Made by a program: the position numbers and the translations under genes. The notes below the pieces were generated by a model. It was not told where the DNA came from. It saw nothing but the letters and a program-made list of their open reading frames with translations, and searched no databases. Positions 13,529 to 62,960 of a stretch of 64,000 bases of DNA are shown here, one piece after another. Position 1 is the first letter of the stretch. Each line of letters begins with the position of its first letter. Location: positions 1 through 64,000 of the IMG/VR virus record IMGVR_UViG_3300029288_000079, one strand, 5' to 3'. Source of the stretch: a virus (Duplodnaviria; Caudoviricetes).

Positions 13529-13555
13529 TTTGTATCTCCTTAATTAAGTTATTTA

Positions 13556-13756: not shown

Positions 13757-13759
13757 ATC

Positions 13760-13975: not shown

Positions 13976-14588
13976 TACCTGACCTTCTATTATTTTTTGA
14001 GGCTACAACAGGATATTGCAATCCAATAAGAGATTCTACATTACGCTGTTGACGAGATAAATTTACATTAACATTCATCAAAGTTTCTTGTTTCTCCTTC
14101 ACTATATCAATCAAAGCCTCAAGATCATTTAAAATACCCTCCACAATATTCATTAGCTTTACTACCTCGGGCATAGTATTTTGAACTGCAGCAGACTGTA
14201 GTTCCTTATTCTTTAAAGCCTTCACTTTATCATCAGAAGATAACATCTCAACTTCTTTTTTCTTATATATTCTTTTCAAACGACTATTATATCTCTGCCA
14301 CTGAGCTCTCTCACGCAATATAGAAATATGAATATTACTAGCTCTACTCAAATGTCCCTGAACTGTAGCATATAATTGATTCATACCCGCCACATCCTCT
14401 TCAGGAAAAGCATTAAGACTTACTTGCATGGATTCAATTTCATCCATCTGTTTATTGAAATCAAATGATTGCTCTGATATCTCAATGGCAAGTTTACCCA
14501 AATCCTCTTGAAATAATACTATGGCATCGGTATCAGTAGGTTCTTCTATATCAGACCCTATACTTCCACTAACAAGTTTAATTCTCAT
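13968..14588 (-). CDS. helical coiled-coil protein, possible UvsY-like recombination mediator
   Basis: All-helical pattern; located between recA and the SSB-like gene. Confidence 0.45.
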   Translation of the reverse strand: MRIKLVSGSIGSDIEEPTDTDAIVLFQEDLGKLAIEISEQSFDFNKQMDEIESMQVSLNAFPEEDVAGMNQLYATVQGHLSRASNIHISILRERAQWQRYNSRLKRIYKKKEVEMLSSDDKVKALKNKELQSAAVQNTMPEVVKLMNIVEGILNDLEALIDIVKEKQETLMNVNVNLSRQQRNVESLIGLQYPVVASKNNRRSGNA

Positions 14589-14606
14589 ATTTTATCCTTT
14601 AATTAA

Positions 14607-14737
14607 TGAGTACTTGGCAGTTGATCTGCGATTGATTAGACTAACCGAAGAATTTATGATTTCTCGAGCTAATCTCAATTTTATAAGCTGCTGTCAATAT
14701 AAAATCATTTATCAGACTATCACGTCACAAGTACTCA
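14607..14737 (-). ncRNA. multi-stem structured intergenic RNA downstream of recA
   Basis: Perfect 10-bp closing IR TGAGTACTTG/CAAGTACTCA; internal stems TTTTATA/TATAAAA and GATTAGCTCGAGAA/TTCTTCGGTTAGTC. Confidence 0.5.
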
Positions 14738-14744
14738 CCATTAT

Positions 14745-45651: not shown

Positions 45652-46821
45652 TTATAACACTGATTTAACGACTGTGGATATGAAATCTATATCTTTTATA
45701 GATAGCCCTGGATGACATGGTAAAACTAATCCTAAAGTATGTAATTTTGTAAGATTCTTAGTAATAAATTTATTTTTTATAAATGGCTGCTGACCTAAAT
45801 TACCACCAGATATGGGTCTAGTCTCTATATTTTCCCTATTTAAAGCAGTTATAACTCTATGCTTCTGATTGATATCTTTACATATAATAGGATACGTAAT
45901 GCAAGATATTTTACTAAACTCATTACCCTTTTGCATATCTAATGTTGTGTTCATAAAATTATGTCTGTAACGCATAAAATTTCTATGCCTATATCCTGCA
46001 ATTTCATCTAATATTTTTAATTGCTCTAGTCCTAAAACAGCATTAAACTCTGTAGATCTAACATTTAATCCTGGGTAATAAAATGTAAATCTAGACATAA
46101 ATTTAGATATACAATACTCAATCTCCATATCATTTCTAACAGAATCCTCCACATCCACAGACCATCCATGACTTCTTATCATTTTTAATAAAATACTAAG
46201 ATCTTTATTATCTGTAGAAACCATCCCACCTTCAATAGTACTTATTTGATGGCCATAATAAAAAGAAAATGTACCTATATCTCCTAAAGTTCCGACATAT
46301 TTATTTTCTGCTTTAGATCCTACTGCAGGACAAGCATCCTCCATTAATAAAAACTTATATTTATTTCTAAGTTTTATAAGCTTACCCATATTCCCTGGAT
46401 ACCCAAGAGTTGGAACATACACCACTAAGGAAATTTTATGTAATATAAGAATTCTTTCAAGATCCTGTATGTCCATACTAAATGTATTTAAGTCTACATC
46501 TACAAATTTAATGTCAAATCCCAATTGTATTGCTGGAGACACTGTTGTAGACCACCCAGCACCGCAGATAGCCACCGTTAGGGGCTTATTCCTATGTATC
46601 AACAATTCTTTAATAGCAGCATAAGCTAATAAATTAGCTGAAGATCCTGAATTCACAAAAGTAGAGTAGGAAGCTCCTAAATGTTTAGACCATTTAGTTT
46701 CAAACTCTTTCACTTTAACACCTTGAGTAAGTCTGGGATATTTACTCAGCCATTTAATAGCCTTATCTATATGATATTTTGGTATAGTATCTTGTGCTAA
46801 ATAATACTTATACTTGCTCAT
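45652..46821 (-). CDS. DegT family PLP enzyme, ColD-like NDP-4-keto-6-deoxyhexose 3-dehydratase
   Basis: VNSGSSANL; FSFYYGHQISTIEGG has His in place of the Schiff-base Lys; RSHGW. Confidence 0.85.
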   Translation of the reverse strand: MSKYKYYLAQDTIPKYHIDKAIKWLSKYPRLTQGVKVKEFETKWSKHLGASYSTFVNSGSSANLLAYAAIKELLIHRNKPLTVAICGAGWSTTVSPAIQLGFDIKFVDVDLNTFSMDIQDLERILILHKISLVVYVPTLGYPGNMGKLIKLRNKYKFLLMEDACPAVGSKAENKYVGTLGDIGTFSFYYGHQISTIEGGMVSTDNKDLSILLKMIRSHGWSVDVEDSVRNDMEIEYCISKFMSRFTFYYPGLNVRSTEFNAVLGLEQLKILDEIAGYRHRNFMRYRHNFMNTTLDMQKGNEFSKISCITYPIICKDINQKHRVITALNRENIETRPISGGNLGQQPFIKNKFITKNLTKLHTLGLVLPCHPGLSIKDIDFISTVVKSVL

Positions 46822-48662
46822 GGATTTATCCCTACAATTATATCAGGTAATATCGGATTCTCAAATCCAGATGCAACATCTATAATCATCTCTTTTTTAA
46901 GCTCCTCTCGGTCAAGATAGGGATACATATCTTCCAATGCCGTACTCCAACCCACTAATCTTGGTATATAAGAATGATACTCATGACAATTTACATCACA
47001 TATTACTGTCTCACTTGAGTTCAAAACATCTAATATTTTAGATACTAATTCAGAATTATTATTTATTGTACAAGTCTTAATACCATAAGCTTCAGCTACT
47101 TTAACAAAATCTGGAGGTTTATATCCTACAGGACCACAAGCCTCCGCCCTGCCACCAAAATTAGTCTCTTGAAAGGCCTTGGTAATTCCATATATGTGGT
47201 TGTTAATGATGAATACCTTTACATCTACTCCATAGTTCTTTATAGTTTGGAGTTCTTGAATATTCATATTCATACCCCCGTCACCTATAACACATATAAC
47301 ATTTTGCTTCTTATTAGATGCACACCATGCCCCAATAGATGCGGCAAAAGAAAATCCCATAGGAGAATTTCCATTATTGGTTAAAAACTTCTGGCCTAAC
47401 ATAGTTTCAAAGGCCTGAGACATAATTACAATATTTCCACCACAGTCAGAAATAATAATACTATCCTTATCCACCATACCTGATAATACTCTAGAAAATA
47501 CATAAGGATGTACTATATCTTTAGTATCATAATAAGATTGTTTAATTACATCATACTTGATCTTCCAACCCATAACCTTTTCAGTCCACTGAGAAAAGTC
47601 AGGCATCTCAACAAATTTAGATTTTTCTATATAATCTAAAAGCATATTTAAAAATATGGTAGAATCACAACGAAGATTATAATCAAATACAACCTGTTGT
47701 AATTTTTTCTGAAGATTTGCAATATCAATATCTACAATATATTTCTTTGCACTACGAGCAAATAACTCAGGAGCTCCCCCAGTTATTCTTCCAGATATCC
47801 TAGACCCTATAGCCAACAATAAATCACAATTCTGAATACCTAAATTACGTCCTGACCCACCATATGTTCCAACTCTCCCACCATAATAAGGAAAATCAGA
47901 TGTTACTATGTCCAAAGCATTCCATGTAGGAAAAATAGGTATTTTTAATATATTAGATAACTGTAATAAAAATTTAATGGCCTTGGGATCATGCACACCC
48001 CCTCCTATAAGAAGAGCGGGTCTTTTAGACATGCTTAAATCACTTATAAATGACTTTATAAATCCAAAAATTTGATCTATATCAAATACACTTTCATCTG
48101 GTGAAGAATCATATCCCACTAAATCATCAGTTTCAATCAATTTCTTCTGTATATCTAAGGGTATGTCAAGATGAACCGGACCTGGCCGACCCTCTTGCAT
48201 AATAAATAAGGCTTTTTCTAACTCAAACTTAACATCTTCGGCCTTTGTTATCATAACTGAATATTTTGTTATGGGTTTCATTATACCCACCATATCTGAT
48301 TCCTGAAAACCTACCTGTCGAATAATAGGATCAGGCCTCAAAAACCTAGAGCTTATCTGCCCCGTAATAAATAAGCATGGTACAGAATCATAAAAACAAT
48401 TTCCTACGGGAGTAGTAAAATTCATCCCTCCAGGTCCACTAGTAGCAATAGCTACTCCAAACTTACCAGAAACTTTTGCATATGTTTCGGCTGAGAATCC
48501 CGCAGCCTGCTCATGCATTGTACATACATATCTGGTCTTATCTGTACGGGTGAAAGCATCAAATAAATCACCTACCGCACTACCATAAACACCAAATATA
48601 TCTTTAATACCTTTTTCTGCTATATAGTTAATAATGTAGTCTGCAACCTTTATTTTGGCCAT
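46818..48662 (-). CDS. ThDP-dependent acetolactate synthase-like enzyme (YerE-like sugar-branching candidate)
   Basis: HEQAAGF, TSGPGG, RQVGFQE, GRPGPV, GDGG...NN. Confidence 0.88.
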   Translation of the reverse strand: MAKIKVADYIINYIAEKGIKDIFGVYGSAVGDLFDAFTRTDKTRYVCTMHEQAAGFSAETYAKVSGKFGVAIATSGPGGMNFTTPVGNCFYDSVPCLFITGQISSRFLRPDPIIRQVGFQESDMVGIMKPITKYSVMITKAEDVKFELEKALFIMQEGRPGPVHLDIPLDIQKKLIETDDLVGYDSSPDESVFDIDQIFGFIKSFISDLSMSKRPALLIGGGVHDPKAIKFLLQLSNILKIPIFPTWNALDIVTSDFPYYGGRVGTYGGSGRNLGIQNCDLLLAIGSRISGRITGGAPELFARSAKKYIVDIDIANLQKKLQQVVFDYNLRCDSTIFLNMLLDYIEKSKFVEMPDFSQWTEKVMGWKIKYDVIKQSYYDTKDIVHPYVFSRVLSGMVDKDSIIISDCGGNIVIMSQAFETMLGQKFLTNNGNSPMGFSFAASIGAWCASNKKQNVICVIGDGGMNMNIQELQTIKNYGVDVKVFIINNHIYGITKAFQETNFGGRAEACGPVGYKPPDFVKVAEAYGIKTCTINNNSELVSKILDVLNSSETVICDVNCHEYHSYIPRLVGWSTALEDMYPYLDREELKKEMIIDVASGFENPILPDIIVGINP

Positions 48663-49585
48663 AAATCACTCGCTTTCAATTCATTTATCTCTTCTTCTTT
48701 TATCGGATAGCAAAACTCTTCAGTAGGAAATTTATGAGTCTTAACTTCATATACATAAATCTTTAAAGCCTCTGTTATAATATAAAGCAATCCATCATCT
48801 CTAGTATCCCTACCCAAAGCATTGATACCTTTAGGTGTTTCTGTAATATGACTAACATACTTTTCAGCAACAAAAGTAACATAACATTTAGAGAAATAAG
48901 GTCTAAATGTAGGATATAATCCTAATAGATCATGCATTATCAATAATTGACCATCTACCTTACTTCCAGCTCCAACACCATATACAGGGACATCACTTAC
49001 ACTAGTTATAACTCCACCAGGCTCTGTAGGAATCGCCTCTAATAGAATGGAAAATACCCCAGCATCCCTTAATTTTTGAGCATCCTTCATAGTCTCTAAT
49101 AAATTTTCCACAGTTTTACACTGAACCCTATAACCCCCAAAGGATTGAGTACTTTGAGGAGTAAGTCCCAAATGTCCCATTACCAATATTCCAGCATTAA
49201 CTATAGCCTCTACTCTGGAACAAACTCTTTCACCACCCTCTAGCTTTATGGCATCACATCCAGCTTCTTTTATAAAACGCAACGCACTTCTAATAGCCTC
49301 TTCGTCAGACACTTCATAGGATCCTTGTGGCATATCCCCTATAATAAATGTATTGGGAGCTCCTCTACGAACAGCTTTAGCCATCATAATCATTTCATCC
49401 ATAGTAACAGGATTGGTGGTAGAATAACCATATTGAACCATACCTCCAGAATCTCCAACTAAAATCATATCCACACCAGCTTTTTCAGCACAATATGCTA
49501 AAGGATAATCATACGCAGTAACCCAAGCTATTGGAATTTTTTCTTTTTTCATTTGCTGCAACTTTAATAATGATACCTTTGGCAT
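48650..49585 (-). CDS. panB: ketopantoate hydroxymethyltransferase
   Basis: TAYDY, LVGDSGGM, GDMP, KLEGG, GHLGLTPQ, GAG, DGQ, HDLLG. Confidence 0.93.
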   Translation of the reverse strand: MPKVSLLKLQQMKKEKIPIAWVTAYDYPLAYCAEKAGVDMILVGDSGGMVQYGYSTTNPVTMDEMIMMAKAVRRGAPNTFIIGDMPQGSYEVSDEEAIRSALRFIKEAGCDAIKLEGGERVCSRVEAIVNAGILVMGHLGLTPQSTQSFGGYRVQCKTVENLLETMKDAQKLRDAGVFSILLEAIPTEPGGVITSVSDVPVYGVGAGSKVDGQLLIMHDLLGLYPTFRPYFSKCYVTFVAEKYVSHITETPKGINALGRDTRDDGLLYIITEALKIYVYEVKTHKFPTEEFCYPIKEEEINELKASDLWPK

Positions 49586-49609
49586 AGTTTACTCCTATTT
49601 TATATTTAT

Positions 49610-50950
49610 TTATACAATATCCTTTTTGGGTATCATACTATAAGCTAAAGACTGTAATAATCTCAGCTCACCTATATTTAATGATTCACTTTCCATAATT
49701 CCCGGATATTGTTTACCATATAAGTCCCAATCATTAGTTAAAATCCTAAGACCATATCTTCCTACTTCTGCAGAACGTCTTAAAGCCGTTCCTGGAAAAG
49801 GTACCGCTATAGGGAATGTACAAGAATAAATATCTAAAAATTTTCCCATCTCTATAGATTTCATTGCAGTTTCTCTTGTCTCTCCAGGAAGACCTAATAT
49901 AAAGCTTGCGGCACATGTAATACCCGTCTCTTTTGCAGCTAAAATGGTTTTTTTTATCTGCTCTGATGTATAGGGCTTACCTGTCCTTCTAAGAACACCC
50001 TCATCGGCACTTTCCGCACCAAAAAAAATATAATAACATCCGGCCTCTCTCATTAATTTAAATAGACTGAGATCACATAAATCTATTCTCATCTCACAAG
50101 ACCACTTCAACTTTTTATTAATACCCTTCTTTATAAATTCATTAAATAAATCTATGCTTACATCTATTTTATTATTCTCTATCAAAGTCTCATCAAAAAA
50201 TACCAAAGCCTCACATCCAAAATCTTTTATATTTCTATCTACCTCTTCTATAACAGAATTTACTGATCTAACTATTCTTTTACGACCAAATGGCCTTACA
50301 CAAAACACGCATGTTCCAGGACATCCTCTACTGGTAGAAATAGGCAACTCAAGTTTGGTTCTATGTGGATCAGCACCTGAATAGGAAGATAACTTAAACA
50401 TATCCCATGCAGGAAATGGAAGCAAGTCCAGATTTGTGATTCTTTTAGATATACAACTATTTTTAGTCTTACTACCTATAGTAAGTATATCACCAACATT
50501 TAAATCATTTTCAAAAAAACTAATTATGGATTCCTCAGCCTCTCCACAAAAAGTATAATCAAAGCAAGAAAACTCATTTAAAGTCTCTAATGGCATTGAG
50601 GTAGCATGTGGTCCACCAATAAATGTTTTTATTGAAGGGAAAAGTTCTTTTATTTTTCCTGCTACTGTAGCTGTCTCTTTAATCTGTGTTGTATATCCGG
50701 TAAACCCAATCGCTAAAGGACGATTCCTATTTATAAATTCTATAATATCAGACACATTAAAATTATCTATAAACATATCAATAAATTTGGATTTAATGCC
50801 CCTTTGTTTGGTAGCAGCCAATAAATATGCCATACCTATGTGAGGAGATATTTGACGAGGTGTATCCTTAGATACTTTAAGAGATTCAAAGTATTTTTTT
50901 CTACCTTCAATATCTAATACAACATTTATTAATAAAAGATCCAGATTCAT
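49610..50950 (-). CDS. B12-binding radical SAM enzyme
   Basis: GGPHAT, GEAE, TSRGCPGTCVFC, GLPGET. Confidence 0.9.
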   Translation of the reverse strand: MNLDLLLINVVLDIEGRKKYFESLKVSKDTPRQISPHIGMAYLLAATKQRGIKSKFIDMFIDNFNVSDIIEFINRNRPLAIGFTGYTTQIKETATVAGKIKELFPSIKTFIGGPHATSMPLETLNEFSCFDYTFCGEAEESIISFFENDLNVGDILTIGSKTKNSCISKRITNLDLLPFPAWDMFKLSSYSGADPHRTKLELPISTSRGCPGTCVFCVRPFGRKRIVRSVNSVIEEVDRNIKDFGCEALVFFDETLIENNKIDVSIDLFNEFIKKGINKKLKWSCEMRIDLCDLSLFKLMREAGCYYIFFGAESADEGVLRRTGKPYTSEQIKKTILAAKETGITCAASFILGLPGETRETAMKSIEMGKFLDIYSCTFPIAVPFPGTALRRSAEVGRYGLRILTNDWDLYGKQYPGIMESESLNIGELRLLQSLAYSMIPKKDIV

Positions 50951-50956
50951 TAAACA

Positions 50957-51922
50957 CTATGCCTTTATATAATTATTTCTATACCAATCTATTGTTTTCT
51001 CAATACCCTCTTTAATATTTACTTTAGCCTCCCATTCTAAAATATCTTTTGCTTTCTGCACACTAACAATTCTTCTAGGGATCATCGTAGGCTTTGTAGA
51101 ATCATAATTTATAATTGGACTATACCCCACATGATCACAAGCATATTTTATAACATCTTTTACAGTAGATACTTCACCACTAGTTATATTTACCGGATCT
51201 GCATCTGCCTTAAGTTCTACCATTTTAAGGAATCCATCTACAAAGTCTTCAACATAAACAAAATTTCTCTGCTCTGAACCATCTCCCCAAACTTCTAAGG
51301 GATTTTGTATATTAGCTATTTTGTTAACTAACGCTGGAATAACATGACAAGTCTCTAAATTGAAATCATCATGAGGCCCATATAGTGCTGTAGTTCTAGC
51401 AATAGCAAATTTAGTATCACTCTGTCTATGAAATTGCATACAAACCTTTTCAAGGTACCTCTTCATATTCCCTACACCAGAATAGCCTTCCCAAGGTTCA
51501 CCTGTAAAACCATCACACTCCTTAACAAAATCCCAGTCCGGGTACATAGTGGAACTACCTACAAACCCAAACTTCTTAGCCCCACATTCTACTGCTGCAG
51601 ATATTACATTAACTCCTATCGTAATATTATCCCTAACTAACTGTAACTGACCTGTTTTCTGACCCTTAGCACCTTTAATAACAGCAGCTGCATTTATTAC
51701 TATATCTGGTTTTACCCAATTAAAATACTCTAACGTCTGTACATAATTTCTAAGATCAATCTTACCTATAGTTATGCCATCTCCATTATATTTTAAAATT
51801 CTTCGTTTGAATATTAAGGCATATATATTTGCCCCCTCGTAAGATAGTCTTTTAACAAGGTTTTGGCCTAGTATCCCTGTAGACCCTGTGATAATAATAG
51901 TTTTGTTGGTGTAATAACTCAT
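50957..51922 (-). CDS. NAD-dependent epimerase/reductase (GDP-fucose synthase-like)
   Basis: TGSTGILG, LYGPHDDF, HVIPAL, WGDGSEQRNF; catalytic YxxxK appears as VGNMK. Confidence 0.85.
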   Translation of the reverse strand: MSYYTNKTIIITGSTGILGQNLVKRLSYEGANIYALIFKRRILKYNGDGITIGKIDLRNYVQTLEYFNWVKPDIVINAAAVIKGAKGQKTGQLQLVRDNITIGVNVISAAVECGAKKFGFVGSSTMYPDWDFVKECDGFTGEPWEGYSGVGNMKRYLEKVCMQFHRQSDTKFAIARTTALYGPHDDFNLETCHVIPALVNKIANIQNPLEVWGDGSEQRNFVYVEDFVDGFLKMVELKADADPVNITSGEVSTVKDVIKYACDHVGYSPIINYDSTKPTMIPRRIVSVQKAKDILEWEAKVNIKEGIEKTIDWYRNNYIKA

Positions 51923-51932
51923 ATGTAATACC

Positions 51933-52991
51933 TCAATATTTTACTTTTTTAGAGTCCATAATTTCTTCATATGTAAATACATTATATCTATTATGAATTA
52001 CATTCTGATTATCTTTAAACCAAGCTACAGTTTTACTAATCCCGTCTGTAAGACCTGTAGAAGGACTAAAACCTAATATATTCCGTGCTTTATCAATATT
52101 CAACACTCTCGCCCCAAATTTACTAGGAAATATAGGTTTCAAATTATCTAAATATGATTCACCAAAACTTTCCGCTATAACTTCAGCTAAAAATAATATC
52201 TTATACCCAGTTCCACTACTTATATTAAAAGCTTCACAATCACCTGAATTTTCTAAAGCTAACAACATACCATCTGCTACATCCTCAGAAAATGTAAAAT
52301 CACGTATCATATAAGGATTGTGTATATCTACGGATTTGTTCTCACTAATCTTATTTATTAGAGATCCTACTACCATTGTGGTATTTATATCAAAATCATC
52401 CCAAGGTCCATAGCAATTACCAGGTCTAACTATAACTATACCCTTCCACCCATATTCATCCCTATAAGCCTCAGTTTGTAATTCTGCCATTCGCTTTGCC
52501 CATGCAGAATATTTATCCCCTGAATTTGGAAGTCCCTCCCACATTGTACTCTCTATAAATGTAGATCCTGGAGCATATACTCCAACAGTACTTGTAAGAA
52601 GATATTTCTCGACATTTAATTTCTTTGAACATTTTAACATATTCATATTTATACGCATGTGAGAATCAAAGAATGTAGCTCCCCTGGATACTCCAATAGC
52701 GTTAGACCCCTTAGATCCTGCCAACTGAAACACAAAATTTGCTCCTGAGTCTCTAATAGCATTATAACATTCATCATAATTAGTCAGATCACACTTAATA
52801 TATTCTGCGTCTAAAAATTGCCTTACTTTGCATTTTATATGACTAAATCTAGATACTGAATCCGCAGATGCTATTGTCACATATGCTCCCGCATCTAAAA
52901 GTTTAGTTACTAAAGGAACTCCTATTAATCCAGTACCTCCTGTAACTAGTACATTCTTACCTTTGTAGAAATTCATATCATGCTCCTCCAA
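51933..52991 (-). CDS. NAD-dependent epimerase/reductase (GDP-sugar type)
   Basis: VTGGTGLIG, SAWAKR, RPGNCYGPWD. Confidence 0.85.
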   Translation of the reverse strand: MEEHDMNFYKGKNVLVTGGTGLIGVPLVTKLLDAGAYVTIASADSVSRFSHIKCKVRQFLDAEYIKCDLTNYDECYNAIRDSGANFVFQLAGSKGSNAIGVSRGATFFDSHMRINMNMLKCSKKLNVEKYLLTSTVGVYAPGSTFIESTMWEGLPNSGDKYSAWAKRMAELQTEAYRDEYGWKGIVIVRPGNCYGPWDDFDINTTMVVGSLINKISENKSVDIHNPYMIRDFTFSEDVADGMLLALENSGDCEAFNISSGTGYKILFLAEVIAESFGESYLDNLKPIFPSKFGARVLNIDKARNILGFSPSTGLTDGISKTVAWFKDNQNVIHNRYNVFTYEEIMDSKKVKY

Positions 52992-54088
52992 TAATTAAGC
53001 AGGTCAAGATTTATATCATCTAGAGTCTTCTTAGGCTCCCAACCTGTTAGCTCTTTGAATTTTGTACAGTCAGGTATCTGCAGAGTAATATCTGTAGGAC
53101 GTATACGAGCAGGATCTATCTCTTCAAAAATAAGTCCTCTAGGTATTTCACTCTTTTGTAACATATTCTCAAGAGCCTCCCCAACAGTACAGGTATGACT
53201 TCCACCAATATTATATACATCACCTAATATACCATGATTAGCCACAATCCAATAAGCCTCCACAGCATCATCTACATGTGCATATGTTCTTACAGAATTT
53301 AGATTACCTACTCTTATAATATAAATGTCCTCCTGACCATGATTAATATCATCTCTACGCCGAATATATAATCTTTCTTGCTGAACTAATTGATATGCAA
53401 ATGAAGATAATGCAAAATTTCTACCTCTGCGACTTCCCTCATGACTAAATAACCTTGTAGTCATTACTTTAAGTCCATATGCATTATAATAAAATTGCCC
53501 CATCAAATCCTGACCTACTTTGCTTATAGAATAAGGATTGGCAGCTCTTATAGGATTAGTCTCTTTTATGGGTATCTCCTCAGGACTAGGATTTCCGTAC
53601 ACTTCACTCGAACTACAATTAACTACAATTGGGTCTATCCCAAAATTGTCCCTAGCAACTCTTAATTCATCTAATAAATTTGTAGTACCTATCACATTAG
53701 TAGTAAGAGTTGCCACAGGAGTAGAAAAACTAGCCATAGGATAACTTTGAGCAGCAAAATGAAATACAAATTCAGGTTTGGCTTGTTTTATAATATTATT
53801 TAAACTACCTCTATCAAGAAGATCAGATTCAAAGAATTTAACTCTATCATTTCCATAAAGATGAGATATATTTCTATCATCACTTCTCCAACGTCTCGTA
53901 GCATATATATTAACATCAGGTACATTTTTTAAAAGATAGTCACACATATGACTACCAACCATACCTGTAATACCTGTTATAAGAATATTCATATTATAAT
54001 CCAAAATTATTTTTTTCACGCTCTGCGTATACTTTTCTGTTTTTATCAAGCTCTGCAGGATTGTTATTCCTCGCATAGGTTTTATCAA
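52973..54088 (-). CDS. GDP-mannose 4,6-dehydratase-like SDR
   Basis: ITGITGMVGS, AAQS, SSSEVYG, YSISK, VGNL; probable start MNILITG near 53992. Confidence 0.88.
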   Translation of the reverse strand: MIKPMRGITILQSLIKTEKYTQSVKKIILDYNMNILITGITGMVGSHMCDYLLKNVPDVNIYATRRWRSDDRNISHLYGNDRVKFFESDLLDRGSLNNIIKQAKPEFVFHFAAQSYPMASFSTPVATLTTNVIGTTNLLDELRVARDNFGIDPIVVNCSSSEVYGNPSPEEIPIKETNPIRAANPYSISKVGQDLMGQFYYNAYGLKVMTTRLFSHEGSRRGRNFALSSFAYQLVQQERLYIRRRDDINHGQEDIYIIRVGNLNSVRTYAHVDDAVEAYWIVANHGILGDVYNIGGSHTCTVGEALENMLQKSEIPRGLIFEEIDPARIRPTDITLQIPDCTKFKELTGWEPKKTLDDINLDLLNYWRSMI

Positions 54089-54677
54089 AAGTAGATAATC
54101 CTATACTATAATGTCGATGTTTGAAAAGAATCTCGGGAGCATTTATAAGACAACCTGACCTTCTGGAAAGCTCTGTGAAATCATTGTCAGCACACATAGA
54201 TGTATATTTTGGATAAATAAAATATCCAAATTTCTCAAAAAATGCTCTATTCATTATCGGTTGAGTAAACACAATACCATAATCACGAAGTCCATCATGA
54301 GTTCCAATAGATTTGGGTTGATTAAAATTATCCACATCTTTTAACTTTTCAAAAAGACTCTTATCCCAGTTTGTACAGGGTTCTACATCATCCACTACTT
54401 CTACCAAAATCTGTGTTGTCTTTGATATATACTTAGACAAATTATTCACTGCTGCAACTGGATTCCTAGACTCTCCGATATATACAATTGCTTGTACACC
54501 CTTACAAGGTATTTTAAATATATCTTTATAGGTATCTTGTAAAGGATCATCATTATCAACACCTATAAGATACTCAATACTATCAGGATCCAAAGCTGAT
54601 ACTATCCATTTACAGAAATTATCATATGCTATTTTGGGTCTCTCCCTAGTAGGATGTAATATAGATATATTAATCAT
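53994..54677 (-). CDS. GT-A fold glycosyltransferase
   Basis: PTRERP, VDNDD, VDD, ADNDF, HRH. Confidence 0.75.
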   Translation of the reverse strand: MINISILHPTRERPKIAYDNFCKWIVSALDPDSIEYLIGVDNDDPLQDTYKDIFKIPCKGVQAIVYIGESRNPVAAVNNLSKYISKTTQILVEVVDDVEPCTNWDKSLFEKLKDVDNFNQPKSIGTHDGLRDYGIVFTQPIMNRAFFEKFGYFIYPKYTSMCADNDFTELSRRSGCLINAPEILFKHRHYSIGLSTFDKTYARNNNPAELDKNRKVYAEREKNNFGL

Positions 54678-55930
54678 TTTTTAGTCCACTTCTCGCTGTG
54701 ACTTACTGGTTTATACTTATTTATTAATCTATCTCGTTCTTTTAAAATTTCTTTGGAACTAAGATTATTTGTATGTATTACCGATTCACTATTTCCACCC
54801 CTTTTACCATAAGCACCTAGACCTTCATGCTCAAAGTACAAATCTATATCTTTACCTCTGTCGATATCATCCCTAATCATAGTACCTCGATAAGGGTAAT
54901 ACACAGCTATCTGAGCATCATCTATGCCAGAAGTTTCAATGAACCTTTCTGTCTCCCCTATAGTCTCATAAGTCTCTCCAGGAAGTCCGATCATTAAAAA
55001 TGCCTTGCAAGTAATACCATATTTCTTACATAATTGAACAAATTCATAGTTCTGTTTTACTGTAGTTCTTTTATCTACATTATCTAAGATCTTTTGAGAC
55101 CCTGATTCAGCTCCGAAAGCTATTTCTACACACCCAGTATCTGCAAGCATTTTAGCAAATTCTTCTGAAAAATAATTTGCTTGACCATTACATCTATATA
55201 TCAGATCTCTCTTCTTTAATTCATTACATATGGGCCGAGCTTTTTTAATAGAAATTGCAAATAGATCATCAAATAAATATACTCCACCATATCCTAAGGA
55301 TTTTATATCATCTAACTCCTTACAAATATTTTCATGACTTGACCATCTAGCAAAAGATCCCGCAGACTCACAAAACCTACATTTTTGTGGGCACCCAGTA
55401 GAAGTAAGCATTGTAGCAGATTTTCTACCCATCAAATTATAATTATAATGAGATAGTAATTCTCTTGAAATATCTGAAACTCTATCTGGTCTAGACATCG
55501 ATGCCCAATCCTTCTTAGACATTATATCCTTTTCTATCCGAGACCCGGCACCCTTTAATATTTTTATAAGGGATCTCTGTCCATCATCTGTTACAACATA
55601 ATCCCAATCTGCACTATGTACATCAGAAAAATAATGTTTTGCATGTGGACCCCCTATAATAGTAGGCTTCTTAGGAAATAAAGTTTTCCAATTATTTAAA
55701 AATCTATCAGAATCATTTCGTTGTGGGGTCATTACAGATACACCTACATAATCATATTTTTCATACTTAGCCATATTATCAAAATCAAAATCATCCTCTA
55801 ACCCAACTTCATATCCAAATTGTTCTATATAAGATTTCAAATATAATAGGGCAAGTGGAGGATATACCCGATCAGAATCCAAGTAACCACTACGAAGTGA
55901 TACCAATAAAATTGATATTTTTTCATACAT
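54674..55930 (-). CDS. B12-binding radical SAM enzyme
   Basis: PPLAL, GGPH, GCPQKCRFC, GAESGS, GLPGET. Confidence 0.9.
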   Translation of the reverse strand: MYEKISILLVSLRSGYLDSDRVYPPLALLYLKSYIEQFGYEVGLEDDFDFDNMAKYEKYDYVGVSVMTPQRNDSDRFLNNWKTLFPKKPTIIGGPHAKHYFSDVHSADWDYVVTDDGQRSLIKILKGAGSRIEKDIMSKKDWASMSRPDRVSDISRELLSHYNYNLMGRKSATMLTSTGCPQKCRFCESAGSFARWSSHENICKELDDIKSLGYGGVYLFDDLFAISIKKARPICNELKKRDLIYRCNGQANYFSEEFAKMLADTGCVEIAFGAESGSQKILDNVDKRTTVKQNYEFVQLCKKYGITCKAFLMIGLPGETYETIGETERFIETSGIDDAQIAVYYPYRGTMIRDDIDRGKDIDLYFEHEGLGAYGKRGGNSESVIHTNNLSSKEILKERDRLINKYKPVSHSEKWTKK

Positions 55931-56648
55931 TAGTAGTTTCCAAAATATTTCTTCGTATATGGTCAGGAAATTCTACAATACCACTTACGTCATGTGCAGC
56001 TTTAAAGAATCTATCCGGTGGTCCTGGTGGAGCACCTTCTGCAGCCATATCATCATTACAAATCTGTCTTCTTAACCCTCTATTCATTAAGGCAGCATCA
56101 TTTTTTATCCTACAACTATTTTCAAATATTACAATTTCCGGACATACAGGAACACCACCTTCACGACCTTCTGGAGACCAATGATACTTTCTATCAGTCT
56201 TCATTTTTAAACCACCTTTTATCAGTCTGGTAGTAGGACCTCCATTAGACCAATTAAAATAATGATAAGCATCTTTAGCTGTAAAATATAAAGGAAAATC
56301 CCAGTAACTACTTTTTTTAAATATACCTGTTTTAAATATGCCCCCAAAATTTTTTGTAAAAGTCATGTCAGCGTCTGGTAAGAATGTAAAACCCCCTGTA
56401 CAATGAGATAGACCAAAATTTGTTTGAGCTACTGTAAAATCCCATGGTCTTTCAAATAGTTTAATGGGAACACTATCCTTATAAGAATTTATAATCTCTA
56501 TAGTATTATCTTTAGATCCCCCATCTACCAATACAACTTCATGCAACAGATCTCCTAAATCTTGAGATAAATGCTTACAGCACTCCAAGTACCATAAAAT
56601 TACATGCTCTTCGTCCTGACAAATAGTACATATACTTAAACTATTCAT
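55923..56648 (-). CDS. GT2 glycosyltransferase
   Basis: VDGGSKDNT, DAD. Confidence 0.85.
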   Translation of the reverse strand: MNSLSICTICQDEEHVILWYLECCKHLSQDLGDLLHEVVLVDGGSKDNTIEIINSYKDSVPIKLFERPWDFTVAQTNFGLSHCTGGFTFLPDADMTFTKNFGGIFKTGIFKKSSYWDFPLYFTAKDAYHYFNWSNGGPTTRLIKGGLKMKTDRKYHWSPEGREGGVPVCPEIVIFENSCRIKNDAALMNRGLRRQICNDDMAAEGAPPGPPDRFFKAAHDVSGIVEFPDHIRRNILETTNV

Positions 56649-56651
56649 TTT

Positions 56652-57386
56652 TTATCTCTTTTTCAAAATACACCAATAGCGATCTGTCTCAATAGCTTCT
56701 TCTTCATATACAAATAATTGAGTACCCAATATAGCTAAATCAACGAAAGCTGGACTAATTCTTACACCATGCCAAGTATTCCCAGGGTCTGATCCTGTAG
56801 AGGATCCTGAAATATCCCTACCATGCATTATAAAAATCCCATCTTTCTTTAGGACCCTACCCACCTCATGAATATAACTTTTGATAATTGAAGCAAATGG
56901 TATATGTTGAAAACAGATATATTCAAAAGCCACATCTATACTATTGTCTGGGATCTTATTTAAATTATAACCATCACCCTCAATAAAAAGTATGTTACCA
57001 CATAAACCCCCCAATCTTTTTTCTGCTATATTTAATAATTCTCCAGAAATATCTAATGCATAAAGATTATAACAAGTTGAGGCAATAAATTGAGACATTC
57101 TTCCAAATCCACAACCTATCTCCAATACATTTTCTATATGAACACCCGAATATCCAAAATACTTTTTAATTCTAGGTAAATATTCACCCTCAAAATCATG
57201 CTTGCCAGAACCTTGAATAGCCTCCTCAGATGCATGTTGATTTGCACAGACATATGATGCCGCATCTGTTATAGCCCTAATATTCCAATCGTCTTTTAAT
57301 ACTTTAGAATATTCATCAATTGATAATTGTTTTGTAGAACTTAGAATCTCACAATCAATAGCTCTATTTTTTACATTTTCTTCCAT
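56652..57386 (-). CDS. class I SAM-dependent methyltransferase
   Basis: LEIGCGFGR, LDIS, FQHI, RVLKKDG. Confidence 0.9.
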   Translation of the reverse strand: MEENVKNRAIDCEILSSTKQLSIDEYSKVLKDDWNIRAITDAASYVCANQHASEEAIQGSGKHDFEGEYLPRIKKYFGYSGVHIENVLEIGCGFGRMSQFIASTCYNLYALDISGELLNIAEKRLGGLCGNILFIEGDGYNLNKIPDNSIDVAFEYICFQHIPFASIIKSYIHEVGRVLKKDGIFIMHGRDISGSSTGSDPGNTWHGVRISPAFVDLAILGTQLFVYEEEAIETDRYWCILKKR

Positions 57387-57608: not shown

Positions 57609-58424
57609 TTACACCTTCAACCCTTCCTTCATCTTACTCATAAATTGCTCCCATCCACCCTCTTTAAAATTAGCTATACGCTCTTTCATAACGGTAGGGT
57701 GTGTTCCGGTAAAATGTCTAACTTTATTACCTGCTTTGATAGTCTCTTCAAAAAGATATAAATAATCACAATATTCTTCACCTAGCTTTTCTTTCATCTC
57801 AAGCATTCTTTTATCAGGAAATCCTAGATCAGTATACATATGCTGGAAATCCCATTCCTTCTTAAACCCAACCTTACCCTCATGAACTTTTCCATAATGA
57901 AATATTTCTATATTACTATCGAATACAGGCCCCTCTCCATTTATTAATTGACAAGCATCACCATCCCAAGTCCAACCTTTGCCCTGCCGAGCAATCCTAG
58001 GTACACGTCTATAACAAAAATCAAATTCAGTCTCATAGTTTGCCATAAAATGCGTATAATGCATGGTTGCCAAATTAAAATCCTTTAACAAAGTAATAGA
58101 CTTAACATCTTCAATACTATCATCATGAAGAACTTCATCAGCGTCTAATTTAAGTGTCCACTCAAAATCAGCTTTCTTCATACAATAATTTGCCAAATTA
58201 GATTGTATAGTATAATGAGTTCCCCAAGGCATGTGAATAAGTTTTATTTTAGAGTACTTATCCGCAAGTTTTTGACACAGTTCTATAGTACCATCATCTG
58301 AATCACACTCACACAATATATGTTGATCCACTGCAGGAAGAATAGATTCCACAGATTCCAAAATTGGATAGTCATAAGTTATAGCATTGTGTATAAATGT
58401 GTAAGAACTTATTCCTGGTTTCAT
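57609..58424 (-). CDS. GT2 glycosyltransferase
   Basis: SDDGT, LDADE, HYG. Confidence 0.85.
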   Translation of the reverse strand: MKPGISSYTFIHNAITYDYPILESVESILPAVDQHILCECDSDDGTIELCQKLADKYSKIKLIHMPWGTHYTIQSNLANYCMKKADFEWTLKLDADEVLHDDSIEDVKSITLLKDFNLATMHYTHFMANYETEFDFCYRRVPRIARQGKGWTWDGDACQLINGEGPVFDSNIEIFHYGKVHEGKVGFKKEWDFQHMYTDLGFPDKRMLEMKEKLGEEYCDYLYLFEETIKAGNKVRHFTGTHPTVMKERIANFKEGGWEQFMSKMKEGLKV

Positions 58425-58702
58425 TTTTGTTTTTCCTTTAATTGTCTTTCTATCTTATCCCGCAAAGAACTTGTCTCATGACTATAGCCATCTTCACGTC
58501 TTTTAAGTTGATTATTCTTTTCCCGTGTAACCTTCCCAGGATCCTTTGAGTCTATTGAGGTCCCTATCTTAGAATGTATTCTATTGGGAAATAATCTATT
58601 CATAATTGTACCACATTTAACACAAAGTCTAGGAAGTTCTGGATTAGTAATATCCAACTCTTCAAAATCACACTCAGGACATTTAAAATCAAATAGTGGC
58701 AT
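58421..58702 (-). CDS. FmdB-like zinc-ribbon protein
   Basis: MPLFDFKCPEC...CVKCG. Confidence 0.75.
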   Translation of the reverse strand: MPLFDFKCPECDFEELDITNPELPRLCVKCGTIMNRLFPNRIHSKIGTSIDSKDPGKVTREKNNQLKRREDGYSHETSSLRDKIERQLKEKQK

Positions 58703-59631
58703 TATATTACTCCCAAAGTTTTATCTATGGCTATTTTTAGTTCTCTCATAGTATTCTCTTTGCTATATCGATCCACAGTTTTGGTAGCCCTAAACATAAT
58801 ATCATTAATAAATTTCTTATCAAAATTAAACAATAGTTTAGATATAACTGTGGCTAGGGTCTGGGAATCCCCATCAGCACAGATCATACAATTTATACCA
58901 TTCTGCATATAATCAGTACCACCCCCACCAGTATAACCTACAACAAAAGTATTACTTGCCATCGCCTCTAACCCTGGAAGACCAAGACCTTCAGGATATG
59001 AGTGAGCAAAAAATATGTCGGCCAATCTTAGTTGTTTGGCAAACTCAGATTCAGAGCTGTCCTTTAAAGATGTGACCGACACATAATTTTTAACCTCACT
59101 CGGTAAATAGAATTCAACAGCTTTCCACCGTAATGAACCATCTTTTCTTTCCTGTACCAAAACATTAGTTTTACGTAATTTAAATTTTTCTATGTCTTTA
59201 TCAGGATAAAAAACAAATCTATCAATAAAGGGTGTAACTCTGTACCCAGGCACACCTATCTTGCTCTGGTTCCACTCAGAAGAGACCCAAAGCTTTATAT
59301 CTGTATAATCCGCACTTCTATCGAAGAAAACCTCACCTTGGGCATAACTGACAAGATAACGAGCTTTAAAACGCCTTAGTGACTCTATATCTTCCCAACC
59401 AACTATAATTACGTCCGGATCCTGCTCAAGACTATGCCAAACGTCACCCCAAGTTATTATTTTAACCTTATGATCAAACCAAGTAGGTATCGATTGATAA
59501 TTAGGAACAGCTATGCAACTATCATACCCGAGTTCCGTCTCCAGCTCAGATAATTGAAAATGAACTTTTATCCCACCACTGGGATCCATATTTTTAGGAA
59601 TAATATGAACTATTTTTTTAGTCATACACAA
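58702..59631 (-). CDS. GT-B (GT4-like) glycosyltransferase
   Basis: SGGIK, EGLGLPGLEAMA. Confidence 0.85.
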   Translation of the reverse strand: MCMTKKIVHIIPKNMDPSGGIKVHFQLSELETELGYDSCIAVPNYQSIPTWFDHKVKIITWGDVWHSLEQDPDVIIVGWEDIESLRRFKARYLVSYAQGEVFFDRSADYTDIKLWVSSEWNQSKIGVPGYRVTPFIDRFVFYPDKDIEKFKLRKTNVLVQERKDGSLRWKAVEFYLPSEVKNYVSVTSLKDSSESEFAKQLRLADIFFAHSYPEGLGLPGLEAMASNTFVVGYTGGGGTDYMQNGINCMICADGDSQTLATVISKLLFNFDKKFINDIMFRATKTVDRYSKENTMRELKIAIDKTLGVI

Positions 59632-60715: not shown

Positions 60716-61087
60716 TTATAATTTTAAACCTATATCAAGTGCTGAAATTTCCTCTAGTAAATTTTTAGCTTTAATTTCCCATTCATGAGCATGCTCATCA
60801 AACCCACCAGTAGCCCACGTAAGAGGCATGGCATTACTTATTAAAACGCTACACTTATTTATTACTATACCCACTCTTTTGTAATATGTTAATAAATCTT
60901 CTAAAGAATTAATAAATACACTTGATTGACCATTTAAAGACCTGCATATAAATTCTGCAGACTTTCTCTGATTTTTTGAAAAAATTGCAATTACTTCAGG
61001 ACTATTTCCACCATCTTTCAAACTTAAGACAATATCACTCTCACAATCTGTAATTAAAGAATATTCTTTACCCATTTCAGTCTCCAA
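60716..61087 (-). CDS. hypothetical protein
   Basis: 123-aa ORF. Confidence 0.6.
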   Translation of the reverse strand: METEMGKEYSLITDCESDIVLSLKDGGNSPEVIAIFSKNQRKSAEFICRSLNGQSSVFINSLEDLLTYYKRVGIVINKCSVLISNAMPLTWATGGFDEHAHEWEIKAKNLLEEISALDIGLKL

Positions 61088-62960
61088 AAATTACTTGTTT
61101 TGCTAATTTACCTACCACCTCTATTGAATAATTTTGAGCCTTAATAAGTGAGGCTTTGCCTTTATCTTTTACTTTATCTCTATGATTATATGCATAACGT
61201 AAAAGAGATCTGAAATGTTCTATAGATACTTCAGCCCATTGACCACCAATATAATTCTTAAAATAGGGCAATACCTGTAATGGTATATCAACAAGCTTAT
61301 ATTCAGCTGTCCAGCCAACATCTGAAGTGACAAAATCTGTCACGCCACTATATCCCGTAACTATACTGGGTATTCCTAATGCTGCACACTCAATTATGCT
61401 ATTACCAAAACCTTCACCTCTGGTAGTTAATAAATTACAATCAAAATTTCTTAAAAAGAAAGGCATTACACTATCAGATAATAGTGAATTAGTACAATAT
61501 ATTGGGGCATGACTTTTTCCTCCTGAAAGCTCTTGAATATATTGCTTAATATTTTTTCCCTGTTGTTGAAGAACATAATGTAGAGATAAACTATGCACAG
61601 TCAGAGTCACGTCATCTTTAGCATCAAACTCCTCGATAAAGGATCTGAATAAGGCTTCTGGATTTTTTCTCTCCCCAAAATGAAATACCGAGACAAAATT
61701 CATACCTCTTTTATAGCTCAGAGGCATTACATCTGTAGAAGATTTAAATATACTTAAATCCGTAGCATTAGGTACTACAAAAATAGGAGTTGTCACCCCA
61801 TGATTTAAAATAATTTCACGGAAAAAAGTAGAATTGGTTATAACCTTATCTACAGCATTGAGTTGATCTCTCCAAGCTCTATTAATTCTATTGCTTTCAC
61901 CTGTAGTATGTGCTACACGAGACTTACCTGGAGGCATAAGATATAAATGATCCCCCTCACTACTACGCAAGACATGTCTATTCCAGTAATCATGAGGCTT
62001 ATTTATCATCCTTTTAATTTCCCAATCTATAACATTTCCGGGTTGATGATATTCCTCAGGAGCTATTGCAACATCTACACCATTACGACCAAGGCCTTTA
62101 GCTAAATTACGCATCACAATACTAAAGCTCCACTCTCCCATTATTTTGCAGCAGAACATAACTCTATCTTCAGATTCAAATTCATAAGGATCTTCATCAT
62201 GTTTCATATAAAATTTTATCTGATTATTTCTAGAAATATCATTAACTTTTTTTATGTCTCGATATATGTCTATACCTGTTTTGTTTTCATAATGATAGGA
62301 TTTAGCTGTTGGACAATATACTGATTTAAAACCTAGTTTACGGGCCTCATAACACATATCCACTTCTTCAAAATAGGCTGGGGCAAATCTTTCATCAAAG
62401 TGATCTAACTTTTGCAATAATTTATTTTTTATAAGAAAAAGAGCTCCCGTTATATATTCACACTCTTCCTCTATCTGCTGCACCGAAGGATCATTATCTA
62501 CCTCTCCCGCGCCTTTATGTTGACCCCAACCATATATGTTTAAAAATGCCCCAGCATGTTGAATTCTACCATCTGCAAATAATAATCTACCCCCAACAAT
62601 ACCTATATCATCTGGCCTCTCCTGAAGTAAAGCATCTATACATCCTGGCAAAAGCTCCATATCATTATTCATTATTAGAATGTCTATATCAATAAACTCT
62701 AGAAGTAATAACTCAATACCCTGATTTACCGCAGGGCCAAACCCTTTATTTTCTTCATTAGAGAGACATCTAAATTGTATCCTATCAGTATCTTTCAACT
62801 CCTTAAAAAACTTTACAGTATCATCTGTAGATGCATTATCTATAACAAATACAATAATCTCATCACAAAGTTTAAACTCATGTTGCTTAATAGATTCTAT
62901 AAGCTTCTTCGTATAAAATATCTGATTATAAACAGGAATAACTATACCTAATCTTTTCAT
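61077..62960 (-). CDS. bifunctional GT2-GT4 glycosyltransferase
   Basis: IPVYN, DNASTD, NND, YFEEVD (GT2); RKN, GEGFG-IEC (GT4). Confidence 0.9.
   Translation of the reverse strand: MKRLGIVIPVYNQIFYTKKLIESIKQHEFKLCDEIIVFVIDNASTDDTVKFFKELKDTDRIQFRCLSNEENKGFGPAVNQGIELLLLEFIDIDILIMNNDMELLPGCIDALLQERPDDIGIVGGRLLFADGRIQHAGAFLNIYGWGQHKGAGEVDNDPSVQQIEEECEYITGALFLIKNKLLQKLDHFDERFAPAYFEEVDMCYEARKLGFKSVYCPTAKSYHYENKTGIDIYRDIKKVNDISRNNQIKFYMKHDEDPYEFESEDRVMFCCKIMGEWSFSIVMRNLAKGLGRNGVDVAIAPEEYHQPGNVIDWEIKRMINKPHDYWNRHVLRSSEGDHLYLMPPGKSRVAHTTGESNRINRAWRDQLNAVDKVITNSTFFREIILNHGVTTPIFVVPNATDLSIFKSSTDVMPLSYKRGMNFVSVFHFGERKNPEALFRSFIEEFDAKDDVTLTVHSLSLHYVLQQQGKNIKQYIQELSGGKSHAPIYCTNSLLSDSVMPFFLRNFDCNLLTTRGEGFGNSIIECAALGIPSIVTGYSGVTDFVTSDVGWTAEYKLVDIPLQVLPYFKNYIGGQWAEVSIEHFRSLLRYAYNHRDKVKDKGKASLIKAQNYSIEVVGKLAKQVIFGD

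Follow-up and report, generated by a model that had tools for sequence, protein, structure and literature searches.

The DNA analysed here, referred to as the window, is the first 64 kb (64,000 nucleotides) of the 181.7-kb IMG/VR virus record IMGVR_UViG_3300029288_000079, a phage genome that CheckV rates as 100% complete. The window has a G+C content of ~33% and carries nearly all of its genes on the minus strand. We consider a group of seven contiguous, mostly overlapping genes in which panB, encoding a 2-oxo-acid hydroxymethyltransferase, lies beside a gene for a thiamine diphosphate (ThDP)-dependent enzyme and among genes for nucleotide-sugar enzymes. The same seven genes had been listed in a preliminary description of this DNA, and all were found on the minus strand, each gene either overlapping the next or lying no more than 24 nt from it. 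They are as follows.

45652..46821, minus strand: ColD-type sugar 3-dehydratase, dependent on pyridoxal phosphate (PLP) or pyridoxamine phosphate, with His for the catalytic Lys (PF01041, 197 bits)
46818..48662, minus strand: ThDP-dependent carboligase resembling YerE and JanthE, proposed to form the C-branch of the sugar (TPP_enzyme N, M and C domains)
48650..49585, minus strand: PanB, 2-oxo-acid hydroxymethyltransferase, the proposed maker of the branch donor (PF02548, 311 bits; TIGR00222, 258 bits)
49610..50950, minus strand: B12-binding-domain radical S-adenosylmethionine (SAM) enzyme 1 (PF02310 and PF04055)
50957..51922, minus strand: Fcl/ColC-like extended short-chain dehydrogenase/reductase (SDR) without the catalytic Tyr (VGNMK) and the Cys109 equivalent (NF047922, 162 bits)
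51933..52991, minus strand: extended SDR without the catalytic Tyr (SAWAK; PF01370, 134 bits)
52973..53992, minus strand: nucleoside diphosphate (NDP)-sugar 4,6-dehydratase, probably acting on a guanosine diphosphate (GDP)-sugar and GDP-heptose dehydratase/Rmd-like (PF16363, 230 bits)

Judged from the functions encoded, this viral cluster probably directs the synthesis of a sugar nucleotide of the C-branched 3,6-dideoxy type, which would serve the adjacent phage glycosyltransferases as substrate. The evidence for this proposal includes the active-site residues of the individual proteins and the conservation of the PanB-ThDP pair in other viruses.

Catalytic residues and family assignments

The presence of PanB and a ThDP enzyme, as first described, is borne out by profile scores and domains. 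PanB scores above the equivalog cut-offs of both TIGR00222 (258 against 207.55 bits) and NF001452 (304 against 272 bits), and all of its catalytic and 2-oxo-acid-binding residues are kept (D45, D84, K114, E116, H138 and E183). K114 is the carboxylate-binding lysine, and no nucleotide-binding element has been added in the viral PanBs. The fold family and the catalytic residues are those of the pantothenate enzymes of Escherichia coli (1M3U) and Mycobacterium tuberculosis (1OY0). Viral and cellular PanBs have the whole active site in common, and residue 58 is the sole conserved position that differs systematically between them.

Family searches of the whole 181.7-kb genome found no PanC, PanD, PanE, ketol-acid reductoisomerase (ilvC), dihydroxy-acid dehydratase (ilvD), acetolactate synthase small subunit (ilvN) or NTP_transferase, and the same searches matched most or all control genomes. 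The earlier statement that panC, panD and panE are missing from the window therefore holds for the complete genome too. Because the genome carries no pan or ilv partner genes, PanB and the ThDP enzyme cannot be phage-encoded parts of a pantothenate or valine pathway, and because no nucleotidyltransferase is encoded, the starting nucleotide sugar must be made by the host.

The ThDP gene overlaps the end of panB by 13 nt at its start and also overlaps the ColD-like gene. Its product carries the domains PF02776, PF00205 and PF02775; the ThDP motif appears as GDGG at residue 460, and the region of the N-terminal catalytic Glu as 'MHEQAAG' around residue 50. Among proteins of known structure it matches JanthE (8RPH) at 297 bits, then 5AHK, probably PpYerE, at 276 bits. 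Acetohydroxyacid synthase (AHAS) I of E. coli follows at 240 bits and the yeast and plant AHAS enzymes at ~217-232 bits. With TIGR00118, the AHAS equivalog, the protein scores 388 bits, under the cut-off of 538 bits; for this reason, and as the genome has no match to ALS_ss_C, KARI_N or ILVD_EDD, identity with a biosynthetic AHAS (IlvB, IlvG or IlvI) was rejected. The scores indicate that the protein is most likely a YerE-like carboligase, closer to the characterised YerE-like enzymes than to biosynthetic AHAS. JanthE, itself YerE-like, joins 2-oxo acids to ketones and tolerates bulky donors (PMC12188165).

The DegT-family protein of 389 aa has ColD as its best structural match (2GMS, 182 bits), and E1 scores lower (3BCX, 141 bits). 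Its His191, within 'FYYGHQIST', aligns with ColD His188 at the position where aminotransferases have the PLP lysine, and which is Asn in the H188N structure 3B8X; the previous assignment to the His-type DegT dehydratases is thereby confirmed. The protein has six Cys and no CxC Fe-S motif of the E1 type. Identity with E1 (RfbH/DdhC) was rejected on that missing motif, on length (389 aa against ~437-450) and on an NF011936 score of 196 bits against a cut-off of 423.

The 4,6-dehydratase has both Y186xxxK190 and the Rossmann motif GxxGxxG. It had been called Gmd, a name that does not fit its TIGR01472 score of 132 bits against a cut-off of 415, level with that for RmlB at 131. The GDP-glycero-manno-heptose 4,6-dehydratase 7US5 matches it at 226 bits, Rmd (2PK3) at 165 bits and true Gmd at ~105 bits. 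By sequence the protein is closer to the GDP-heptose dehydratase/Rmd-like subtype than to canonical Gmd, and its substrate is likely GDP-linked, with a hexose and a heptose both candidates. Translation probably starts at the ATG at 53992 (MNILITGITGMVG) and not at the TTG at 54088.

The two SDRs had been proposed to reduce the branched product, a role that their sequences do not support, since both lack the tyrosine of YxxxK and read V-G-N-M-K in the Fcl-like protein and S-A-W-A-K in the other. Aligned with GDP-fucose synthases, the Fcl-like SDR has Val for the Tyr and Met for Cys109, with Lys and His kept, and its NF047922 score of 162 bits compares with a cut-off of 500. As the triad Tyr and the acid-base Cys are both replaced, identity with a GDP-L-fucose synthase or ColC-type epimerase-reductase was rejected. 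The second SDR (51933..52991) has weak structural matches to GalE-like 4ZRM and to WbmF 2PZJ. Across the loci described below, the window included, YxxxK is present in 98 of 105 SDRs, and the Tyr-less ones occur only in a sub-clade made up of the window and two related loci, L004 and L011. The members of this sub-clade have a GDP-type dehydratase, a ColD-type 3-dehydratase and, in place of the canonical reductase, two tandem Tyr-less SDRs; compared with other carriers, the window also has two B12-domain radical SAM enzymes added. The tandem SDR genes lie directly upstream of panB in all three (window 50957-52991, L004:4487-6469, L011:6006-8014), and their products read VGxxK and [S/A]xxxK, with a Tyr moved 1-3 residues upstream.

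Domains and motif agree with the description of the gene next to panB as encoding a B12 radical SAM enzyme, the CxxxCxxC motif being CPGTCVFC at residue 210. The C-methylation ascribed to it fared less well, as the nearest structure is the sugar diol-dehydratase AprD4 (6FD2, 61 bits), which is non-methylating, and radical SAM genes fall outside the conserved core of the module. Every NCBIfam match of this protein is far under its cut-off, and its tailoring reaction may be either C-methylation or radical dehydration.

Linkage of PanB to a ThDP enzyme in viruses

A search of 5.8 billion proteins placed the window PanB in a large family with 60-65% identity over the full length, many members of which lie on contigs of 100-200 kb. 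Through an alignment of the PanB family, 50 viral and 80 cellular loci were fetched with their flanks, and their open reading frames (ORFs) were compared with the window proteins. A ThDP gene is present in 47 of the 50 viral panB loci and lies within 250 nt of panB in 44 of them; in 77 cellular loci no gene for a ThDP enzyme, a DegT protein or a sugar SDR was found at up to 8 kb from panB. The difference in ThDP linkage gives a Fisher p of 1.2e-31, a value that overstates independence since the loci are related. The pair adjoins in 44/50 viral and 0/77 cellular loci, which is comparative evidence for a functional tie between PanB and the ThDP enzyme. In two of the three viral loci without a ThDP gene the contig stops right after panB, and the third (L029) is of the panC type, with a PanB nested among those of Bacillota. 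Conversely, panC is found in 28 of 80 cellular loci and in one of 50 viral loci.

The PanB-ThDP pair is kept through three gene orders (PanB>ThDP, ThDP>PanB and divergent) and in six lineage groups. Unbiased clustering of all ORFs from 49 PanB-ThDP loci gave four families common to all groups, namely PanB, the ThDP enzyme, an extended SDR (48/49) and a DegT protein (45/49). All 49 DegT proteins of the viral loci have His at the position of the catalytic Lys, and they come in three flavours: ColD-like, E1-like ('CSFYPAHH', found in loci other than the window) and a third with 'TSFYASHV'. The SDR beside the pair is RmlD-like in other clades, and the accessory families are mostly glycosyltransferases. 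The cluster had been treated as the oddity of a single phage, a view that cannot stand given that the module is widespread in viruses, the six lineages including nucleocytoplasmic large DNA viruses (NCLDV). In one sub-clade (PanB identity 37-43%) the records also encode several NCLDV capsid proteins, and some of these records are labelled GVMAG; they are prasinovirus-type giant viruses. In a quick tree of PanB with support from the Shimodaira-Hasegawa-like approximate likelihood ratio test (SH-aLRT), the ThDP-linked viral PanBs group together (support 89), split into a phage clade that holds the window (99) and a clade that contains NCLDV sequences (94), both apart from the cellular, panC-linked PanBs.

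The histories of the two enzymes differ within this module: the ThDP subtype tracks the dehydratase type, and PanB tracks the virus lineage. All 24 'TSFYASHV' loci fall in one ThDP clade (support 1.0) that unites phage and giant-virus loci, and their PanBs fall in different clades. Pairwise identities follow the same pattern. Relative to L007, the locus L010 has 62% identity in PanB and 32% in the ThDP enzyme, and L030 has 39% and 50% respectively; relative to the window, L027 has 49% and 58%, and L004 has 75% and 33%. L004 has no ColD and has gained ThDP systems of the transketolase and E1 types. Parsimony on the DegT labels differs slightly between the ThDP tree (7) and the PanB tree (9), and the argument rests on clade composition and the pairwise identities. 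Were PanB to work on the branched sugar, its lineage should follow that of the scaffold, and it does not; this fits a free donor whose synthesis is independent of the scaffold.

The pair is not exclusive to viruses, given one locus that looks cellular. L055 (positions 1-16918 of that locus, on the 196-kb contig JAOMEV010000001.1 from a Bacteriovoracales single-cell assembly) has a PanB of the phage clade and a ThDP gene and no His-type DegT gene. Its neighbours encode an SDR, a cytidine monophosphate (CMP)-sugar synthetase, a FabG-like SDR, a radical SAM-SPASM protein, a GNAT protein, an ABC exporter, a GmhA/HAD fusion and NeuB. The idea that L055 is a mis-binned phage was dropped, since the assembly contains no Terminase_6N or UvsW-like helicase and the neighbours look cellular. 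The pair in L055 may serve a nonulosonic-acid or heptose scaffold.

A cellular source among the Spirochaetes, considered because of metagenome-assembled genome (MAG) labels and the branched sugar 'aurantose', was likewise rejected, as none of the 12 best PanB loci from 301 Spirochaetota genomes has a ThDP gene within 1.5 kb; we found no open paper that gives a structure for aurantose. One Treponemataceae MAG (G011) carries three PanB copies with 63%, 54% and 47% identity to the phage PanB (contigs C425, C5 and C58), and the 63% copy lies on a 1.8-kb contig for which phage or cell origin cannot be told. Translated searches (tblastn) of PanB and the ThDP enzyme against a phage collection matched mostly bacterial contigs filed as phage. 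Among these are records (H1-H37) named as Listeria, Staphylococcus, Salmonella, Escherichia and Campylobacter phages, many with housekeeping ilvB, panB and panC, which are apparently bacterial contigs. The panB of Microcystis phage MaAM05 was rejected as a member of the module because it sits with panC and a suf operon. That locus (L134, MW495066.1:254372-273130), in which the suf operon is complete (sufBCDS, iscU), lies at the end of a 274-kb record and is apparently either cellular DNA or a large island of host origin.

A proposed branching pathway and its alternatives

From the gene identities, active-site residues, conserved linkage and pattern of co-variation we infer the chemical steps, the donor, the nucleotide carrier and the destination of the glycan as follows. 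A host-made GDP-sugar, GDP-mannose or possibly GDP-glycero-manno-heptose, would enter at the 4,6-dehydratase for oxidation and dehydration; the ColD-type His-dehydratase would then take off the 3-OH to give a GDP-4-keto-3,6-dideoxy sugar. In parallel, PanB would use methylene-tetrahydrofolate to hydroxymethylate a free 2-oxo acid of the host. The most conservative substrate for PanB is 2-oxoisovalerate, which would yield ketopantoate, a 4-hydroxy-2-oxo acid. The YerE/JanthE-like ThDP enzyme would decarboxylate this donor and add the acyl-anion equivalent at C4 of the keto-sugar, resulting in a tertiary alcohol with a hydroxyacyl branch. Tailoring by the atypical SDRs, the B12-type radical SAM enzymes and a methyltransferase would follow, after which the glycosyltransferases would transfer the sugar, probably to virion proteins. 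The idea that PanB supplies the branch donor was already part of the preliminary description, and the adjacency in viral loci, the kept catalytic residues and the scaffold-independent lineage now add comparative evidence to it. We favour an order, suggested by sequence comparison, in which PanB acts first on the free 2-oxo acid and its product is the ThDP donor, because the canonical active site is kept and the PanB lineage is independent of the sugar scaffold.

Related chemistry is known from bacteria. The direct precedent is the clusters for erwiniose, caryophyllose and gastriose, where the YerE-like enzyme receives its 2-oxo-acid donor from an aldolase (Steitz et al. 2022; review PMC12247030), a 'unifying scheme' whose members are ErwI/ErwJ-ErwE-ErwF of Pectobacterium atrosepticum, MMAR_2331/2332 of Mycobacterium marinum and MygI/MyGE/MygF of M. 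gastri (PMC9306805). As in that scheme, the window combines genes for a 4-keto-3,6-dideoxy sugar with a YerE-like carboligase, a putative dedicated maker of a gamma-hydroxy 2-oxo-acid donor, and glycosyltransferases. The proposed donor maker in the window is PanB, a methylene-tetrahydrofolate-dependent hydroxymethyltransferase, whereas a pyruvate aldolase has this task in theirs; GDP, with a ColD-type dehydratase, is the probable carrier, whereas theirs is cytidine diphosphate (CDP), with E1 and E3. The window genes are also in a virus, with no canonical reductase of the YerF/ErwF type and with B12-type radical SAM enzymes added. As PanB resembles an aldolase in mechanism and ketopantoate belongs to the 4-hydroxy-2-oxo acids, the window cluster is best described as a variant of the unifying scheme.

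Other known pathways correspond in part. The pathway to yersiniose A in Yersinia pseudotuberculosis (DdhA-D, YerE, YerF) likewise has a 4,6-dehydratase, a His-type 3-dehydratase and a ThDP-dependent addition at the C4 ketone, but YerE takes pyruvate and there is no donor maker, and the CDP-sugars are processed by E1 ([2Fe-2S]) with E3, whereas the window enzyme has no E1 Cys motif. With the GDP-colitose pathway (Gmd, ColD, ColC) the window has in common a GDP-type 4,6-dehydratase, a ColD-like His-dehydratase and an Fcl/ColC-like SDR. It differs in that this SDR has neither the Tyr nor the Cys, that the ThDP enzyme and PanB are inserted, and that the dehydratase is GDP-heptose/Rmd-like. PanB of the window type, unlike that of pantothenate synthesis, has no pathway partners, lies beside a ThDP carboligase among sugar genes, falls in a separate, mostly viral clade and has Asn58 for Leu.

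Several points weigh against the pathway as drawn. The quaternary beta-carbon of ketopantoate makes it a sterically demanding ThDP donor, and PanB might use pyruvate or 2-oxobutyrate instead. Residue 58 is Asn in 93% of the ThDP-linked viral PanBs and Leu in 81% of the cellular ones, and this Asn, judged from the alignment, may be a determinant of substrate specificity. The margin of JanthE over the next structure is small (297 against 276 bits), and the phage has no canonical YerF-type reductase, both candidate SDRs being Tyr-less. As no nucleotidyltransferase is encoded, the identity of the starting sugar is a guess. The L055 pair, which has no 3-dehydratase beside it, indicates that PanB and the ThDP enzyme can serve another scaffold or another chemistry. 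Finally, we know of no sugar with such a branch.

The same enzymes could act in the reverse order, the ThDP enzyme adding a simple acyl group to the NDP-4-keto sugar (for example acetyl from pyruvate, as YerE does) and PanB then hydroxymethylating the carbon alpha to the branch ketone on the sugar nucleotide. Hydroxymethylation alpha to a ketone is PanB chemistry, the adjacency of the genes is explained equally well, and Mg2+ could be chelated by the alpha-hydroxy-ketone in the branched product much as by a 2-oxo acid. We nevertheless judge this order improbable. The viral PanBs retain the full canonical active site, including Lys114, with no nucleotide-binding element, their lineage does not co-vary with the dehydratase or ThDP type, and in the erwiniose system the aldol step comes before the ThDP step, with ErwE refusing pyruvate and preferring 4-hydroxy-2-oxo acids (PMC9306805). 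To nearly the same degree we doubt that the PanB-ThDP pair yields a small hydroxyacyl or aldehyde unit with no C-linkage to C4, such as a hydroxy-aldehyde or acid, formed by decarboxylation, that becomes an O- or N-acyl substituent of the glycan, or a separate metabolite. The L055 pair beside genes for GNAT, NeuB and a CMP-sugar synthetase would suit such a role, as would L004, in which PanB is 75% identical to that of the window, yet the ThDP enzyme is swapped and ColD lost. However, a His-type 3-dehydratase, which makes the 4-keto-3,6-dideoxy acceptor of YerE-type enzymes, is present in 45 of 49 PanB-ThDP loci, and the ThDP enzymes co-vary in subtype with the dehydratase and are nearest to the ketone-accepting YerE-like group.

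A more ordinary explanation would make these auxiliary metabolic genes, with PanB serving pantothenate and coenzyme A (CoA) synthesis in the host, an 'acetolactate synthase' serving branched-chain amino acids, and the remaining genes making GDP-colitose through Gmd, ColD and ColC. PanB does pass its equivalog cut-off, the cluster includes a dehydratase, a ColD-like enzyme and an Fcl/ColC-like SDR, and published annotations agree with this explanation (PMC6851583, PMC5371798). In the gene lists of the prasinoviruses OtV, OlV and MpV, 'acetolactate synthase', 'aminotransferase' and 'ketopantoate hydroxymethyltransferase' have been read as genes for amino acids and CoA (PMC5371798, PMC6851583, PMC5454428). 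The NCLDV contigs collected here carry the PanB-ThDP-His-DegT-dehydratase module, the same families as in those isolates when compared through the published gene lists. We consider the explanation very improbable for the window, where panC, panD, panE, ilvC, ilvD and ilvN are missing from the genome, the ThDP enzyme is under the AHAS cut-off and nearer JanthE, and the Fcl-like SDR has neither the catalytic Tyr nor the Cys109 equivalent that a ColC-type epimerase/reductase needs. Moreover, the adjacency of panB and the ThDP gene persists through the different gene orders and viral lineages, always among sugar genes, and is absent from the cellular loci.

The favoured pathway, with PanB as donor maker, can be extended to a broader and more doubtful proposal, which we put forward tentatively. 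Viruses of bacteria and of green algae might have in common a sugar-branching chemistry that has gone unrecognised, with a PanB-made ketopantoate or other hydroxymethylated 2-oxo acid as ThDP donor and a hydroxyacyl-branched deoxysugar as product, further remodelled in this phage by two B12 radical SAM enzymes and two Tyr-less SDRs. The branch would possibly contain a quaternary carbon (3-hydroxy-2,2-dimethylpropanoyl), and to our knowledge that group occurs in no described glycan. A literature search found no paper linking PanB with YerE-like enzymes, branched sugars or this viral module, although its coverage was incomplete and is not proof of absence.

If the pathway is as proposed, a vitamin-pathway enzyme has been recruited for the donor step of sugar branching, which would widen the aldolase-based scheme and predict an undescribed sugar. 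Viral panB (vitamin B5/CoA) and 'acetolactate synthase' with 'aminotransferase' (amino acids) would be re-annotated as glycan genes in phages, marine viromes and prasinovirus-type giant viruses; where virome counts list 'panB' and 'acetolactate synthase' as auxiliary metabolism, the genes would belong to virion glycans. Pairs of PanB and YerE-like enzymes would offer biocatalysis a new route to tertiary alcohols whose side chains carry functional groups. A rare, virus-specific sugar on the virion would also bear on host recognition and the arms race between virus and host.

Upstream genes and variation among related phages

The seven genes belong to a larger glycan block that spans 63979 down to 45652 on the minus strand. 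Upstream of them, to at least 63979, the cluster continues with a second B12 radical SAM enzyme, a SAM methyltransferase and about seven glycosyltransferases (GTs), among them GT2, GT1/GT4, GT2-GT4 fusion and GT4-like proteins.

53994..54677, minus strand: 227-aa protein with a glycosyltransferase match in PHROG alone (phrog_14945, E = 5.6e-23; nothing in Pfam or NCBIfam)
54674..55930, minus strand: B12-binding-domain radical SAM enzyme 2 (PF04055 and PF02310; CPQKCRFC at residue 180)
55923..56648, minus strand: GT2 glycosyltransferase (PF00535; kept in L004, L005 and L011)
56652..57386, minus strand: class I SAM methyltransferase (PF08241 and PF13649)
57609..58424, minus strand: GT2 glycosyltransferase (PF00535)
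58421..58702, minus strand: small Zn-ribbon protein within the glycosyltransferase block (PF09723; homologue in L002, 75% identity)
58702..59631, minus strand: GT-B (GT1/GT4) glycosyltransferase (PF00534 and PF13692)
61077..62960, minus strand: GT2-GT4 fusion glycosyltransferase (PF00535 N-terminal, PF13692/PF00534 C-terminal)
62960..63979, minus strand: GT4-like glycosyltransferase (PF00534)

The protein encoded at 53994..54677 has a homologue at the equivalent position in L011. Downstream of the glycan block lie genes for a sigma factor, an exoribonuclease and a class II ribonucleotide reductase. Comparison of the cluster DNA with isolated phages by megablast gave no match, and a promoter and terminator scan of the cluster did no better than on shuffled sequence.

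The ThDP genes of related phages vary in form. In seven divergent phage loci (L015, L019, L020, L022, L024, L035 and L050) the ThDP enzyme is split into two overlapping ORFs of ~335 aa and ~250 aa just upstream of panB, at ~6240-8001 of each locus. The arrangement looks like a conserved natural split and not a sequencing error. In L002 (8885-16983 of that locus; IMGVR_UViG_3300014204_012498), whose PanB is 75% identical, ColD and the radical SAM enzyme have been lost and an aldo-keto reductase is present. Three ThDP systems stand there in a row: a 548-aa enzyme resembling acetolactate synthase, a split transketolase and a shortened E1 alpha/beta pair. Between related phages, one branching chemistry seems to be exchanged for another at a rapid pace.

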